Sequence record: SRR20825019_163
Strand: one strand, 5' to 3'
DNA length: 55,391 nucleotides
The position numbers and the translations under genes are program-made. The notes beneath the pieces were generated by a model. It was not told the origin of the DNA and did no database searches. It worked only from the letters and a program-made list of their open reading frames with translations. Position 1 is the stretch's first letter. Each line of letters starts with the position of its first letter. Of the stretch, positions 28,728-33,722 are shown piece by piece.

Positions 28728-28832
28728 TATGCCCCTCCCAAGGATCACTCGTCGCGAGCGTTGCCTTCGCCGCCAAACGCTGAAATAGTTCCACACAATT
28801 GAGTATGGGCAAAATTCTTTGTGAGCAGAGCG

Positions 28833-29807
28833 ATGACGCTGGAGATAAAACCAATATCCGATGACGACCTGCAGCCCTATTTTGAGCTGATGAACGATGA
28901 GAGCATTGCGGTGATGGCTGGCACGGTGCCGCATCCGGTAACATTTGAGTGGGCGAAAGAACGCATCCTGAAGCGTAGGACGCAGGAGATTGAAGGTACA
29001 CTCGCACAGCGCGGCTTGTTTGAGGACGGCGTGCTGGTGGGGGACGTGAGCTATTTCTTCTCGGACGGTAAGGTTGAGATTGGCTACGCCATTGGCAAAG
29101 CCCACCGTGGTCGCGGCCTTGCCACGATCGCTGCCAAGTTCGCGGTAGACCTGGTGCGTGAGCATGGCATCACAGGCCCTATCCGCGCAGGCTACGCGCA
29201 GGATAACCCGGCCTCAGGCCGCGTGCTTGAGAAGGCCGGGTTTGTGCCCAACGGTGAAGGTGTGGGCAACTCCATGGGCCGCGGCGGCGAAATGCCGCTC
29301 TATATGGCCATTTACCGAGACGATGTGCGCCTGCGGCCACACCGCGCGGAAGATTTTGAAACGCTGGTCACTTTTGTGGATGACGAAGAAGCCTTCTGTC
29401 TGGCAGGCGGGGGCACACGTGATAAAACGGCTGCGGATATGCGGGCCCGCATTGAGGGCTACATCACCAAAGGCGCCTTTTTTCAGGTGATATTGTTCGA
29501 GGGCGCGGCCGCTGGTTATGTGGCGGCATTTGAACGCGAGGATAAGCTTGAGGTCAGCTATTGGCTTGGCCGGGCTTTCTGGGGCAAGGGCATTGCCAGC
29601 CGTGCGCTCGCATTATGGGTTGAACGTTTGGCGGGGCATCAGGGCACCTGCCCGCGCCACCTTTATGCGCGGGTGGCAAAAGACCACCCGGCATCGATCC
29701 GTGTGCTGGAGAAGAACGGTTTTAAAGCCGTAAGCGAAGACAGTTATTTTTCCGGCCACCGAAACGCGGACGTGGCGGAGTGGCTGTACCGATTAACTAC
29801 CGCTTAG
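28833..29807 (+). CDS. Tandem two-domain RimJ/RimL-type GNAT acetyltransferase
   Basis: Two repeats of EIGY/EVSYW...GRG/GKG...NPAS/HPAS.RVLEK.GF. Confidence 0.9.
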   Translation: MTLEIKPISDDDLQPYFELMNDESIAVMAGTVPHPVTFEWAKERILKRRTQEIEGTLAQRGLFEDGVLVGDVSYFFSDGKVEIGYAIGKAHRGRGLATIAAKFAVDLVREHGITGPIRAGYAQDNPASGRVLEKAGFVPNGEGVGNSMGRGGEMPLYMAIYRDDVRLRPHRAEDFETLVTFVDDEEAFCLAGGGTRDKTAADMRARIEGYITKGAFFQVILFEGAAAGYVAAFEREDKLEVSYWLGRAFWGKGIASRALALWVERLAGHQGTCPRHLYARVAKDHPASIRVLEKNGFKAVSEDSYFSGHRNADVAEWLYRLTTA

Positions 29808-29811
29808 ATAA

Positions 29812-29877
29812 ATTCATTCAATCGATTAATGTCAGCATATAGTTCAATTGGAACTATCAGCCTGCTGATGCCACCTT
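29812..29877 (+). promoter_or_regulatory. Putative OxyR-activated promoter
   Basis: ATTC-N7-CGAT-N7-AGCA-N7-CAAT abutting a -35 TTGGAA, an 18-nt spacer and a -10 CACCTT. Aligns with the site at the oxyR start. Confidence 0.55.
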
Positions 29878-29883
29878 CTCTTT

Positions 29884-29987
29884 ATTGAGTGTTTCCTCAA
29901 AAGTTCCTCGCTGGCCCCTTATTGGGGCTCTTTACCCGCTACCGGCATGTGTCCTCCTAAGTCACACCGGTAGCGGGTTTTCTTTTC
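29884..29987 (+). ncRNA. Candidate sRNA of about 100 nt with three UCCUC motifs
   Basis: Three hairpins. The last is a 12-bp perfect stem (29934-29945 with 29967-29978) with UCCUCC in the loop and a U-rich tail. Confidence 0.6.
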
Positions 29988-30103
29988 AAAAATATGAGGG
30001 AAGACAGCACACTCTTTGTCCCATACCCAGGGGGGTGCGAAATTGTGCACCTTGTCGGAGCTTAGGGGCTAGGGCATCCGGCAAACCGCACGCGGGGAGA
30101 GAA

Positions 30104-30520
30104 ATGACAGGCGGCAACATACGCGCCCGCATCCATGCGATGCTGGCAATGCTGGAATCTGGCGAATTTTTACAAACATTTGATCAGTTTTATCGGGCCG
30201 ATGCCCGGTTTTTTGAAAACGAATATCTATTCGCAGAAAGCAGACACGAGGCGCGCGAACGCCAAGCCTCGTTCCTGAACGGGTGCAGCAGCTTTGTGGG
30301 GGATATCGAGCTGGTGCACGCGGATGTCGGGCGCCGCATCGCGGTTTTTCATAACCGGAGCCGGTATGAACACCCGGACTATGGCGCGGGCCAGGTGAAC
30401 GGTGTGCATGTGGCCTATTGGCAGGACGACCTGATCGTGCGGGAGGAATATTTCTCCGGCAAGCGGGTGGATGAGGTTTTGTCTTTCTGGCGGCTTGTGG
30501 GGCGTTCTTCAACGCAGTGA
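30104..30520 (+). CDS. SnoaL/NTF2-like protein
   Basis: F..FY..DA.F.EN and W..DLIVREEYF patterns, GGGGAGAG RBS before the ATG at 30104. Confidence 0.8.
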   Translation: MTGGNIRARIHAMLAMLESGEFLQTFDQFYRADARFFENEYLFAESRHEARERQASFLNGCSSFVGDIELVHADVGRRIAVFHNRSRYEHPDYGAGQVNGVHVAYWQDDLIVREEYFSGKRVDEVLSFWRLVGRSSTQ

Positions 30521-30612
30521 TGGAATGCTAGGTGCACTTTTGTGGCCTCAAGGTGGCCTTCTTCTGATAGACAAGAGGTACTATCATCCATATGCGGCTG
30601 TAGGGTTGTGAG

Positions 30613-30933
30613 ATGAATAAAAGAATTTCGCTGATGTACCAAGACCCCAGATACAGGCTGTTAGGTCTGGCGGTGATCTTTTTCATGCTTGAATCATATA
30701 CTCTCGGCGCAGGAAACTTCATTTTAGGTTTGGGAGTGGCAGTCATTATATCTTACTTGGCCCACAAGTCGGCGCTTTGTCCTAGCTGCCGTCGGTTTAT
30801 GGGAGAAGGAAACACCTATAGATGGGTGCTTAAGTTTTTTGAGCCAGAGTGCCCTCATTGCCGCTATGTATACTGTCGGGGGGAAATGGGGCACGGTTCG
30901 TCTAATGGGGCCTGCAACAGTAGCCATGACTAG
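30613..30933 (+). CDS. Small membrane protein with a CxxC...CxxC zinc ribbon (lower GC)
   Basis: Two hydrophobic segments followed by CPSC and CPHC. Confidence 0.6.
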   Translation: MNKRISLMYQDPRYRLLGLAVIFFMLESYTLGAGNFILGLGVAVIISYLAHKSALCPSCRRFMGEGNTYRWVLKFFEPECPHCRYVYCRGEMGHGSSNGACNSSHD

Positions 30934-30998
30934 TGGAACTCCCGAGGTATAGTGCTGCATGGCTTTGAGTCCACCCTGCCTTTCCTCTGCGTCTCTCC

Positions 30999-31901
30999 CT
31001 ACCCGTGGTGGTGCATCACGTCTTTGATGACGTTGCCAAGCGTTTCAAACGTTGCAGCGCGGGGGTTGGTTTTACGCCATATCAGCCCGATGGTGCGGGT
31101 CGGGATCATGTCTTTGAAGCTGACAATATCAACTCGCGCCTTGTCGGCGAGGCCAGCGTCAACCGCCATGCCCGGCAACAGGGTGATGCCGTGGCCTGCC
31201 GCAACCATCTGGATGATGGTGCCAAGGCTTGTGCCTGCCATCTCGCGCCGTGCACCACGCCCCACTAGCTGGCAGGCCTCAAGCGCATGGTCCCTCAGGC
31301 AATGCCCTTCCTCAAGCAGCATCAGGCGGCTTTCATCAAGCTCGGTGGTGTTGATGCTCTCGCCCGGCGCCTGCCCGTGCGGGTAGGCCACCATGAAGGG
31401 GTCATGAAACAGCGGCATCTCCGCCACGTCACCGCAGGCATAGGGAAGCGCAAACAGCACAAGGTCCAGCTCGCCAGAGCGCACAAGCTCGCAAAGCTCT
31501 GCCGATTTGTCTTCGCGCAAGTGCAGTTCCAGGTCAGGCAGCCTGTCATGAATGGCAGGCATGATTTTGGGCAACAGGAACGGCGCGATGGTGGGGATGA
31601 TGCCGAGGCGCACGATACCCTTCAAAGGGTCCTTCGCGGCAGATGCCATGTCGGTCAGGTCATCCACGTCATTGAGGATAACCTGCGCGCGGCGCACCAC
31701 CTCTTCCCCGAGTGCCGTGAACATCACGGTCCTTTTGGTGCGTTCCACAAGCTGTGTGCCGAGAAGGCTTTCAAGCTCCTGCAGGCCTGCGGAAAGGGTG
31801 GACTGGGTCACATGGCTGGCGTCTGCCGCTTTACCAAAATGATTGGTGCGGTGCAGTGCCACAAGGTAGCGCAATTGCTTGAGGGTAGGAGGAAAGCTCA
31901 T
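30999..31901 (-). CDS. oxyR: Hydrogen-peroxide-inducible genes activator OxyR (LysR family)
   Basis: LysR HTH (QSTLS..LQELE), GIIPTIAPFLLP, LLEEGHCLRDHALEAC with both redox Cys, TSLGTIIQMV. Confidence 0.93.
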   Translation of the reverse strand: MSFPPTLKQLRYLVALHRTNHFGKAADASHVTQSTLSAGLQELESLLGTQLVERTKRTVMFTALGEEVVRRAQVILNDVDDLTDMASAAKDPLKGIVRLGIIPTIAPFLLPKIMPAIHDRLPDLELHLREDKSAELCELVRSGELDLVLFALPYACGDVAEMPLFHDPFMVAYPHGQAPGESINTTELDESRLMLLEEGHCLRDHALEACQLVGRGARREMAGTSLGTIIQMVAAGHGITLLPGMAVDAGLADKARVDIVSFKDMIPTRTIGLIWRKTNPRAATFETLGNVIKDVMHHHG

Positions 31902-31965
31902 CGATTATCCCGATCACAGAATTCACTTCTATTTGTTGGATCGATGGTAATCATTCGGCGATAGT
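31900..31965 (+). promoter_or_regulatory. OxyR site overlapping the oxyR start, plus a divergent promoter
   Basis: ATCG-N7-CGAT-N7-TTCA-N7-TTGT abutting a -35 TTGGAT, an 18-nt spacer and a -10 GATAGT. Confidence 0.6.
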
Positions 31966-31970
31966 CATTC

Positions 31971-32299
31971 AACAGGAATTCACCGGCAATGCTTCCTCCC
32001 CCAAGGCATTGCCCCGTGCTTCGGCCTGTAACGATCGTGCATTGGTCCCCCTTTGCGCGGTTCGCGGTGACCAAACCGGCAACCCGATCCCCTTTGAGGT
32101 CATGTGCCTCATTGGAATGCCCAAGGGATATCTATCCGGGCTGGTCACCGCGATGCAAATTCAGAAGGGATTGTGGCGTTCGCAAAGCCTTCGACCAAAA
32201 ATCAGCCCGCTGCCCGATTCTCGTCACAATTGGGCGGTCTGATACAAGCGGCCTCAAAGGTGCGAGATTTTCGCGCTCTTTCGGGGCCGCTTTCTGTTT
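31971..32299 (+). ncRNA. Candidate multi-hairpin ncRNA of about 330 nt, divergent from oxyR (oxyS-like position)
   Basis: About six successive stems, loops CCUCCCCCA and UUGGUCCCCCUU, a perfect 12-bp stem (32062-32073 with 32142-32153) and a terminator (32246-32292) with a U-rich tail. No credible ORF. Confidence 0.6.
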
Positions 32300-32400
32300 G
32301 TATTGTCCCATAGAGTTTACGCGTTCCGTACCGCTACATATGGCGTTCTCGGTGCAGGCTATCGGTAAATCTGGTGATGGGGCTGAGGTGAGCAGTAGGC

Positions 32401-32516
32401 AAAAAAATGGCCGGGTAAATACCCGGCCCGAGTCACGACAGCGAGGATAGTGCGGCGGCAGTCACGCACACCGCAATAGGAGTGAGCACGAACGAGTCGT
32501 GCCCTCTCGCCTGACT
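32401..32516 (-). ncRNA. Candidate structured sRNA, or 3' element of the tad transcript, with an intrinsic terminator
   Basis: A multibranched fold (32431-32516) followed on the minus strand by the stem GGCCGGGT/ACCCGGCC and U7. Confidence 0.45.
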
Positions 32517-32741
32517 AAGAAACCAAATAACGGCCTTCTGGTCAATGCTTGTCTGATCACATTCCGCCAAACACCTGAAAAACAGCCAAAAAATCCCGTT
32601 GCAGTGCAATAAAAAGCATGAATTTGGGGCGTCGGTTATAGAACCTTTTACTGTAAAAAACCGTCAGTGGTCACACACGTCGTAGGTGATTCGCGACGCT
32701 TTAATGACAAAAGGCTCAATTTTTGCCGATGAAAGCGTCCG

Positions 32742-33722
32742 CTACTTGCCGATAAAGTCGTCCGCTACTTTACAAGCGGCTGGTCCGATCAAGACAACAA
32801 AGAGCGTGGGCAAGATAAAGAGGATAAGCGGTACTGTCAGTGTGGCAGGAAGTCGCGCGGCTTTTTCTTCCGCTTTCATCAGCCGTTCGTTCCTGAACTC
32901 GGCGGACAAAACCCGGAGCGAAGACGCAAGCGGTGTGCCGTAGCGTTCGCTTTGAATAAGCGTGGTAACCACCCCCCTGAGCGCGGGCAGGTCTACCCGA
33001 TCTGAGAGATTGATAAGCGCCTGGCGCCGCTCTGGCAGGAAACCAAGCTCAATGGCCGCAAGCGAGAACTCGTCTGCCAGCTCGGGCGACGCCCGGCCCA
33101 GTTCCTTTGCGACCCTACCCAATGCACTATCAAGCGTCAGGCCTGCTTCAGCGCACACAACCAGAAGGTCGAGCGCGTCAGGTAGCGATTTACGGATCAG
33201 GTCTGTACGTTTTTGTTTCACATTGGTGATGTAAATATCTGGCAGCTTCAGGCCGAGGAAGACCGCAACAACCGAATAGACAGGATACATCTGCTCATGC
33301 GTGGGCATGTATCTGAACCCATAGAAGAGTATCACCGCGATCAGGCCCACCAGCAGCGGCAGGGTGAGCCGCGCGACCTGATAGATCACCACGGCATCTG
33401 ACGACCTGTACCCGGCCTGCAACAGGCTTGCGGATACTTTGGCAGTTTGTTCCTTCTGCAGGAGCTGCAGCTTGTCTGCCAGCGCTCGCATGCCGCTAAC
33501 ACCGTCTACCTTACGCACGGGTGAGCGGCGCTTGGAGGTGGTCATCAGCCCGGCTTTGAGGGAATCACGCCGGTCCTGCAGCGATTTCACCCGACCCTTC
33601 ATGGGGTCACGCACCAGCGCGGTTTGGTAAACCGCCACCATCACAAGAAGGGCAACAGCACCCGCCGCGAAGGAGATAAGATCGATGATCGGTATGCCGA
33701 TGATATTTTCAATCTCATTCAT
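32742..33722 (-). CDS. tadC: Tad pilus platform protein TadC (CpaH)
   Basis: LPDALDLLVVCAEAG, QSERYGTP, EEKAARLP. Confidence 0.94.
   Translation of the reverse strand: MNEIENIIGIPIIDLISFAAGAVALLVMVAVYQTALVRDPMKGRVKSLQDRRDSLKAGLMTTSKRRSPVRKVDGVSGMRALADKLQLLQKEQTAKVSASLLQAGYRSSDAVVIYQVARLTLPLLVGLIAVILFYGFRYMPTHEQMYPVYSVVAVFLGLKLPDIYITNVKQKRTDLIRKSLPDALDLLVVCAEAGLTLDSALGRVAKELGRASPELADEFSLAAIELGFLPERRQALINLSDRVDLPALRGVVTTLIQSERYGTPLASSLRVLSAEFRNERLMKAEEKAARLPATLTVPLILFILPTLFVVLIGPAACKVADDFIGK

Follow-up and report, generated by a model that had tools for sequence, protein, structure and literature searches.

The question raised by this locus is what a promoter of OxyR type serves when no gene follows it. 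In the 55,391-nucleotide (nt) stretch of DNA SRR20825019_163, hereafter the window, the gene oxyR (30999-31901, minus strand) is bracketed by two plus-strand units, unit 1 (29812-29985) and unit 2 (31900-32299), each made of a promoter and an intrinsic terminator around sequence without a credible open reading frame (ORF). According to the original prediction, the two promoters are homologous and each drives a dedicated small RNA (sRNA) gene. Comparison with relatives leads to a different reading, in which each unit would be the promoter and the 3' end left when a classical OxyR target lost its coding sequence by deletion, catalase in the case of unit 1 and ahpC-ahpD in the case of unit 2. The conserved riboregulator of the locus is instead a predicted sRNA on the minus strand upstream of oxyR (32401-32510), outside the interval of the original prediction. 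A probability of about 0.8 is given jointly to two claims, that both units arose by gene loss and that the minus-strand sRNA is real, any RNA function of the units being left aside. The source of the window is a Kordiimonas genome (order Kordiimonadales, Alphaproteobacteria), its nearest genome being the 4.2-Mb G001, with which 92% of sampled words are in common.

The origin of unit 1 is seen by comparison with a second Kordiimonas relative, G013. There, the homology to the window is split into two pieces, 29820-29890 at 76% identity and 29898-30523 at 98%, which lie 1.5 kb apart, and the 1.5 kb between them encodes a 488-amino-acid (aa) catalase (PF00199 + Catalase-rel) with its ATG 23 nt past the first piece and its stop codon 26 nt before the second. 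In the window, the relic catalase promoter (site 1, 29812-29877, plus strand) displays the tetramers ATTC (29812), CGAT (29823), AGCA (29834) and CAAT (29845), a -35 TTGGAA (29848-53), an 18-nt spacer and a -10 CACCTT (29872-77). The next segment, 29884-29897, holds the predicted transcript start at ~29884, deduced from the position of the -10, a stub of the catalase 5' untranslated region (UTR) and the deletion junction at 29891-29897, the G013 homology ending at 29890 and resuming at 29898. The remainder (29898-29985, plus strand) is the former catalase 3' UTR, 98% identical to G013, in which the motif UUCCUCGCUGG occurs along with a hairpin (29913-29929) and a terminator (29934-29978) followed by a U tract. 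From 29884 to 29985 the predicted fold has an energy of -43.1 kcal/mol (z -6.27), and the stem is still paired in G001, where two changes give wobble pairs (by eye). As had been predicted, no credible ORF follows the promoter: indels of 1 and 2 nt relative to G001, upstream of the ATG at 30104, disrupt the 211-aa TTG frame that opens at 29885.

Furthermore, the catalase upstream regions of eight Kordiimonas genomes align with 29790-29890 and have in common with the window the layout (ATCG/ATCT)-N7-CGAT-N21-TTGGA-N18-CAYCTT, at the same spacing. Orthologs of the catalase (77-100% identity) are present in 9 of 32 genus genomes; in G043, G021 and G016 the gene adjoins oxyR and converges on it, and in G047, G006 and G013 it lies within ~1 kb of oxyR. 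G001 has no PF00199 catalase, but two katG genes. Its deletion junction is identical to that of the window, and the deletion is thus older than the split between the two.

For unit 2, the intact counterpart is found in G003, where ahpC (181 aa) and ahpD (182 aa) stand between oxyR and the convergent conserved sRNA, ahpC being divergent from oxyR across a 116-nt intergenic region. The same oxyR-ahpC-ahpD-sRNA arrangement occurs in G021, G043 and G006, and two further loci (L041 and L049) have ahpC alone. In the outgroups (two Iodidimonas, Rhodothalassium and locus L077), oxyR lies at most ~0.4 kb from the ahpC-side end of the sRNA-ahpD-ahpC locus, which makes the arrangement ancestral. In the ahpC promoters the sequence is CATCGA-N6-CGAT-N21-TTGGAT-N18-CATnnT..CAACAG, exactly matched by the window at 31899-31975. 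Here, the oxyR operator and relic ahpC promoter (site 2, 31900-31965, plus strand) consists of ATCG (31900), CGAT (31911), TTCA (31922) and TTGT (31933), a -35 TTGGAT (31936-41), an 18-nt spacer and a -10 GATAGT (31960-65). A census of 37 unique oxyR-to-sRNA intervals, 6 with ahpC(D) and 31 without, places this layout ahead of ahpC in five of the six ahpC-bearing intervals (six of six with a relaxed pattern), while the 31 intervals devoid of ahpCD have kept the promoter motif in 9 cases, the block around the ahpD stop in 10 and both in 7.

This block is the second signature of the lost operon. At 32194-32245 (plus strand) the window holds a remnant of the last ahpD codons, ..AAA AAT CAG CCC GCT GCC, with the former stop now CGA at 32215-17, and a conserved hairpin with the loop UUCUCGUCACAA. 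The intact ahpD of G003 ends in ..GTT CAG GCT GCC TGA TTCTCGTCACA, against ..CAG CCC GCT GCC CGA TTCTCGTCACA at 32203-32229 of the window, and the ahpD ends of L039, L062 and G006 resemble that of G003. The position of the stop codon is occupied by TGA in G009 and G014 and by TAA in G019; in the window and G013 it reads CGA. The intrinsic terminator downstream (32246-32299, plus strand) is orthologous to the ahpCD terminator in an alignment of nine sequences with and without ahpD, in which 7 of 12 predicted pairs show compensatory changes. Orthology of the promoters and of the 3' ends, the two gene losses and the conservation of RNA structure described below are what the sequence comparison shows. 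As a separate observation, the segment TGATT(C/G/A)T(C/T)GTCA(C/T)A(A/T)TT over the ahpD stop (window 32215-32232; L010, L039, L062, L024 and others) is near-invariant across Kordiimonas, and the conservation of the block, as judged from the alignment, is greater than what a stop codon needs.

The layout described in the original prediction, four N7-spaced tetramers ending in a TTGGA(A/T) -35 with an 18-nt spacer and a -10, is exact at both sites. The ungapped identity of 29812-29857 to 31900-31945, given as evidence of homology, is indeed 23/46, but this count is at chance level: when the first 100 nt of both intergenic regions were shuffled and compared in 46-nt windows, 17 of 60 shuffles reached at least 23 matches, and the unshuffled regions give 24/46 in another register and also against the reverse complement. 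The assignment of both sites to the OxyR type nevertheless finds support in their orthology with the catalase and ahpC promoters of relatives. Indeed, the layout CGAT-N21-TTGGA-N18-(-10) is found in relatives upstream of catalase, ahpC and dps, and the lineage form ATCG-N7-CGAT-N21-TTGGA stands before all three genes, the first tetramer being often degenerate at catalase. Escherichia coli OxyR has the consensus ATAG-N7-CTAT-N7-ATAG-N7-CTAT, abutting the -35. Scored with this consensus, the window gives a top score of 14/20 at 31918-54, then 13/20 at 29786 and 12/20 at 31900 and 29821, which places the two sites (12-14/20) among its top 21. In the 55-kb window, the pattern CGAT-N21-TTGGA, picked post hoc, occurs exactly twice, at the two sites (expected 0.40; at least two occurrences in 6 of 100 shuffles). 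In the 4.2 Mb of G001 the full form has two exact sites only, one at the oxyR locus and one just upstream of dps (Dps/ferritin gene), the latter followed by N18-TATATT and by an identical TCAACAG start region; with at most one mismatch, seven matches are obtained compared to two in all for the reversed-pattern control. Catalase, AhpC and Dps make up the textbook OxyR regulon. The box ATCG-N7-CGAT-N21-TTGGA is very likely the OxyR operator.

No exact OxyR-box motif was found upstream of the katG genes of G001. Only the second katG copy (L091, G001:C1:449600-450100; L092 in G013), which has a signal-peptide-like start, is preceded by AT-rich, N7-spaced tetramers, ATCG-N7-AGAT-N7-ATCA-N7-CAAT, a possible further OxyR site; both features were noted by eye.

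Upstream of oxyR, the only part conserved genus-wide (24 of 25 genomes) and beyond is 32397-32560. It contains a predicted trans-acting sRNA of ~110 nt with three stem-loops (32401-32510, minus strand), with CUCCU between the first and the second stem-loop and an invariant single-stranded UAUCCUCGCUGUCGUGACUC ahead of the terminator. Its promoter (32517-32545, minus strand) shows, in a 21-sequence alignment, an invariant -35 TTGACC (32545-40), a 17-nt spacer ending in TGG and a -10 TTTCTT (32522-17); no OxyR box (CGAT-N21-TTGGA) is present at this promoter. The exact 20-nt core of the sRNA is found at 49 loci, all in Kordiimonas and relatives, Iodidimonas, Rhodothalassium or alphaproteobacterial metagenome-assembled genomes, and as these loci were found by exact match, the invariance of the seed among them is partly by construction. 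At 30 of the 49, the start of oxyR follows on the same strand at a distance of 160-870 nt. Over 52 unique sequences, 13 of 26 predicted pairs show compensatory changes (fold z -4.41), with two stem-loops that covary. With its own promoter, a covarying structure, a single-stranded seed and an intrinsic terminator, the element fits a generic trans-sRNA.

An Rfam search, suggested along with the original prediction, returned no family at gathering threshold over the whole window; the only signals were sub-threshold SorX/SorY matches, outside the predicted interval. A Kordiimonas model of the sRNA was built here, to which 7 of a sample of 151 alphaproteobacterial genomes, one of them G001, have matches, and among five non-Kordiimonas loci examined for these one is SorX above the Rfam threshold, one SorX just below it and three MmgR/suhB above it. 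On these matches the sRNA is a divergent member of the broad SorX/SorY/MmgR type with a C-rich seed. Units 1 and 2 are rejected as its paralogs, neither being matched by the same model.

Further observations touch the seed of this sRNA. A second sRNA-like gene, of the same type, at 346-452 of the window (minus strand) presents a CCUC-loop hairpin, a single-stranded UAUCCUCCUGUC and a terminator with a U tract; it scores 18.7 bits (E 0.004) with our model and likewise 18.7 bits with Rfam suhB/mmgR, below threshold. The 5' UTR of ahpC in G021 (L024) holds ACGACAGCGAG, which complements 11 nt of the sRNA seed without a mismatch, the same 11-mer being seen by eye in G043 (L079), and the relic of Pseudokordiimonas caeni (L046) holds a 10-nt complement. 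A search of all oxyR-sRNA intervals for seed complements gave one 11-mer, one 10-mer and two 9-mers, which is about the chance expectation over ~60 kb; ahpC may be a target of the sRNA, the leader complements being near chance level overall. The 9-mer UCCUCGCUG of the seed core (32436-32444, minus strand) is also present in the former catalase 3' UTR at 29905-29913; UUCCUCGUCUGG occurs in the catalase 3' UTR of both G044 and G004, and AUCCUCCCU in that of G016, ahead of the terminator. The catalase 3' UTR may have been a 3'-UTR sRNA with a sibling seed, or the sharing of the 9-mer may be chance.

Whether anything more than a relic has been kept in unit 2 was judged from its predicted structure. 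The 5' part of the ORF-less predicted transcript (31971-32195, plus strand) has CAACAG near its start, a hairpin at 31985-32013 with the loop CCUCCCCCA (31995-32003), a hairpin at ~32034-32061 and a long helix in which 32062-32073 pairs with 32142-32153. The whole of 31971-32299, with the terminator at 32246-32299, folds at -148.4 kcal/mol (z -6.27), and unit 2 intervals in five genomes, G013, G009, G014 and G019 among them, have z from -4.35 to -7.67. Hairpins with C-rich loops and intrinsic terminators are present in both units, as had been predicted; a simple terminator scanner missed both terminators, because both stems have long loops, and listed only the short inner stem 32275-32287. Each nonetheless consists of a GC-rich stem and then a U tract.

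Between the window and G013 identity is ~98% in the flanks and only 64-73% in the 220 nt from the promoter to the ahpD remnant. In the hairpin 31985-32013, ten base pairs are kept through four double changes (by eye), and three double changes are kept in each of the long helix 32062-73/32142-53 and the hairpin near 32180, with 11 doubly changed pairs across the window, G001 and G013. For 31971-32299 the structure conservation index (SCI) is 0.68 compared to 0.55 +/- 0.05 in nulls (reached by none of 100) and the consensus energy has z -6.6. For the middle of the unit alone, at 64% identity to G013, the consensus energy stands at z -4.26 and none of 150 nulls is as low. Given this conservation of RNA structure, unit 2 is about as likely as not to be a structured non-coding RNA that has been maintained in the lineage of the window, G001 and G013.

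Several observations weigh against the reading proposed here or against a function that the units might retain. No significant protein-level remnant of catalase, AhpC or AhpD was found in units 1 and 2. The top match in unit 2, AhpC residues 119-139 at 32119-32184, has an E-value of 0.043 when only a 0.8-kb database is searched and of 4.3 when the search covers the whole window, and the lack of a protein remnant leaves the middle 220 nt without demonstrated origin. An AhpD match to the G019 interval (E 0.004) was dropped, as its geometry does not fit. Beside oxyR in relatives the promoter motifs are conserved, in that they precede catalase and ahpC there and persist in the 9 ahpCD-less intervals. 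Unit 1 itself (29760-30110) was found in only 2 of 41 relatives searched. In G001 the unit 1 promoter differs at 11 of 77 positions by our own count, -35 included (TTGGAA to TTGGCG), compared to ~8% in the flanks, and looks like a sequence under drift rather than constraint. For unit 2, the ahpC promoter motif is missing from 22 of the 31 ahpCD-less intervals, so the cassette is dispensable, and where the promoter is conserved this could come solely from its overlap with the oxyR promoter/operator. The middle is not conserved in sequence in G009, G014 and G019, its SCI taken alone (0.51) is weak, being reached by 11 of 150 nulls, the C-rich loops are found only in the window, G001 and G013, and the compensatory changes rest on only two effectively independent sequences.

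These points bear unequally on the other explanations. If both units were dedicated sRNA genes, as originally proposed, they would be local OxyR outputs that block ribosome-binding sites, with anti-Shine-Dalgarno loops acting on mRNAs, and would form an independently evolved OxyS-like module. The OxyR type of the promoters agrees with this, as do the C-rich loops (CCUCCCCCA in unit 2 and, in unit 1, UCCUCCU in the loop of the terminator) and the compensatory changes in the unit 2 helices, and OxyS is a precedent of the same kind (PMC8825220). However, the rarity of unit 1 and the decay of its promoter in G001 are at odds with a dedicated gene, and so are the C-rich loops that G009, G014 and G019 do not conserve, the absence of any Rfam match of the units at E up to 10 and the chance-level likeness of the two promoters; we consider this model doubtful. 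What stands of it is unit 2, the helices of which fit an OxyS-like RNA drawn from a peroxidase mRNA, while unit 1 is a recent and probably neutral stub for which a function is improbable. At the other extreme, both units could be neutral debris of gene loss without RNA function, their promoters persisting only through the overlap of one of them with the oxyR operator and their terminators by stopping read-through from the upstream GNAT gene and shielding the convergent sRNA. Fast sequence turnover, with oxyR-to-sRNA intervals ranging from 146 to 646 nt in genomes devoid of ahpCD, speaks for such scars together with the frequent loss of the promoter motif and the drift of the unit 1 promoter. 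Yet compensatory changes preserve three or more of the unit 2 helices at 64-73% identity, fold z values such as those seen in the five genomes are unexpected for debris, and promoter and 3' block were retained together in seven intervals. We hold this explanation to be possible, though somewhat unlikely.

It is very improbable that unit 2 acts as something other than RNA, either as a gene for a small protein or as a repeated palindromic (REP- or MITE-like) DNA element. A 153-aa ATG frame from 31989 and the many inverted repeats of the unit could suggest so. Nevertheless, indels of 3, 1, 1, 11 and 1 nt relative to G013 break this and every other long frame, in line with the originally stated lack of a credible ORF, and the frame crosses the terminator and the opposite-strand sRNA. 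The sequence is moreover single copy in the window, G001, G013, G009, G014 and G019, matches of 16-26 nt at chance level aside. A coding reading of both units was ruled out on the frame-breaking indels, and a repeat-element reading of unit 2 on its single-copy status.

The gene-loss reading can be put together as follows. The ancestor would have carried a compact peroxide-defence island with, in the orientation of the window, catalase (plus strand), oxyR (minus), ahpC-ahpD (plus) and the convergent small RNA (minus), catalase and ahpC each being driven by an OxyR box abutting the -35 (ATCG-N7-CGAT-N21-TTGGA-N18-(-10)). Both enzyme genes would then have been deleted in the lineage of the window. 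Unit 1 would be a fusion of the catalase promoter and the first bases of the 5' UTR with the 3' UTR and terminator of the same gene, and unit 2 the oxyR operator/ahpC promoter, ~220 nt of highly structured sequence, the last ahpD codons with their mutated stop and the terminator of ahpCD. Provided that the two promoters are still switched on by oxidised OxyR, peroxide stress would yield RNAs of ~100 nt and ~330 nt that have inherited their place in the OxyR regulon; that the units are transcribed, that they depend on OxyR and that they have any target is what we infer. Unit 2 may, by analogy, be an OxyS-like RNA derived from a peroxidase mRNA.

A more ambitious version, which we regard as unlikely, is that deletion turned catalase and ahpCD each into an OxyR-driven non-coding RNA made of the old promoter and the old 3' UTR, which together with the SorX/MmgR-like sRNA would form a post-transcriptional peroxide arm of three RNAs; the 3' UTRs may in this version have acted as sRNAs already before the enzymes were lost. 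If true, the route proposed for E. coli OxyS would have been re-run in Alphaproteobacteria independently, twice over and in phylogenetic stages. The birth of new bacterial sRNAs and their wiring into regulons are known from very few cases. To our knowledge, the best known of them is OxyS, the parent gene of which is now almost unrecognisable. Kordiimonas presents readable intermediates, namely an intact oxyR-ahpCD-sRNA locus with catalase, a promoter and 3' end around a fast-evolving structured RNA, and a cassette that has been erased, and a model of regulon membership by inheritance is directly testable in these culturable marine bacteria. Beyond the two units, a likely OxyR operator is defined for Kordiimonadales and a lineage-wide sRNA, syntenic with oxyR at 30 of 49 loci, is added to the SorX/MmgR type. 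Should the cassettes be silent, they would caution that ORF-less promoter-plus-terminator units beside a regulator can be scars of gene loss.

As for the gene context, the oxyR product has the Pfam domains HTH_1 and LysR_substrate, and its top NCBIfam model is OxyR NF008361 with 240.7 bits, under the equivalog cut-off of 329. Its motif GHCLRDHALEAC has two Cys 9 apart (by eye), and one ortholog is present in 30 of 32 genus genomes; a literature search found no paper on oxyR in Kordiimonas. Directly 5' of the catalase-promoter relic is the gene of a double GNAT acetyltransferase (28821-29807, plus strand; Pfam PF13302 + PF00583). Between unit 1 and oxyR lies the gene of a 138-aa hypothetical protein (30104-30520, plus strand), also found in G001 and G013 and without Pfam or NCBIfam match. 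The nucleotide homology of the window to both genomes ends near 30518-30523, where a different 156-aa ORF is found in G013; for a 106-aa AT-rich ORF of the window (30613-30933, plus strand), with CxxC pairs and a hydrophobic segment, Pfam gave no match. Divergence is mosaic: relative to G001, identity is 99% over 31860-32560 and 91-92% over 28800-30520, and relative to G013 it is 98% over 29898-30523 and over the minus-strand sRNA, 75% in the GNAT gene and 76% over 31960-32310. One of the divergence breakpoints within 28800-32560, in the comparison with G001 and G013, falls at the catalase deletion junction, a coincidence suggestive of recombination.

Among known systems, OxyS is the closest to unit 2 by its route. 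In Krieger et al. (2022, PMC8825220), OxyS is described as having replaced a peroxidase gene divergent from oxyR and as deriving from its last codons, 3' UTR and terminator. Unit 2 likewise is divergent from oxyR and shares with it a putative OxyR-bound intergenic region, its -35 (31936-41) being 35 nt from the oxyR ATG with the ATCG-N7-CGAT box in between. It replaces a peroxidase gene that still occupies that place in relatives, it keeps the last codons, 3' UTR and terminator of its parent, as the same source has it for OxyS, and it would be in the OxyR regulon by inheritance. It differs from OxyS in that there is no match in sequence or structure, the OxyS model (RF00035) giving none at E up to 10 in 29500-32800. 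Its parent is ahpC-ahpD, compared to a peroxiredoxin-glutaredoxin hybrid for OxyS (PMC8825220). Furthermore, its predicted length of ~330 nt includes ~220 nt of structured sequence of unassigned origin, and a second cassette, formerly catalase, lies here on the other side of oxyR.

The minus-strand sRNA is best compared with SorX and SorY of Rhodobacter sphaeroides (RF02784 and RF02651), which are RpoHI/HII-dependent. In common with them it has a stem-loop, a single-stranded CCUC.CUGU.G.GA and a terminator, as well as an oxidative-stress context, and our Kordiimonas model matches the Rfam-positive SorX locus L097 with 41.1 bits (57.1 bits with the SorX model). In contrast, the window element scores under the Rfam gathering scores (32401-32482, minus strand; 29.5 compared to 46.6 bits and 33.5 compared to 111 bits), has an extra 5' stem-loop and keeps a fixed position upstream of oxyR. 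SorX is processed from the 3' UTR of an ompR-type mRNA (PMC8625941), whereas the sRNA described here has its own TTGACC-N17-TTTCTT promoter and no upstream gene in the same unit. With MmgR/alpha-r8 (Rfam suhB, RF00519) it has in common a C-rich seed followed by a terminator, and three of the five non-Kordiimonas loci are RF00519 above the gathering score, but the window sRNA itself has 15.7 bits compared to the threshold of 41. Finally, divergent oxyR-ahpC(D) is an arrangement of actinobacteria and many proteobacteria. The ancestral locus of Kordiimonadales, Iodidimonas and Rhodothalassium, with oxyR divergent from ahpC-ahpD, belongs to this arrangement; the window differs from it in that the operon has been deleted and a convergent sRNA flanks the site.

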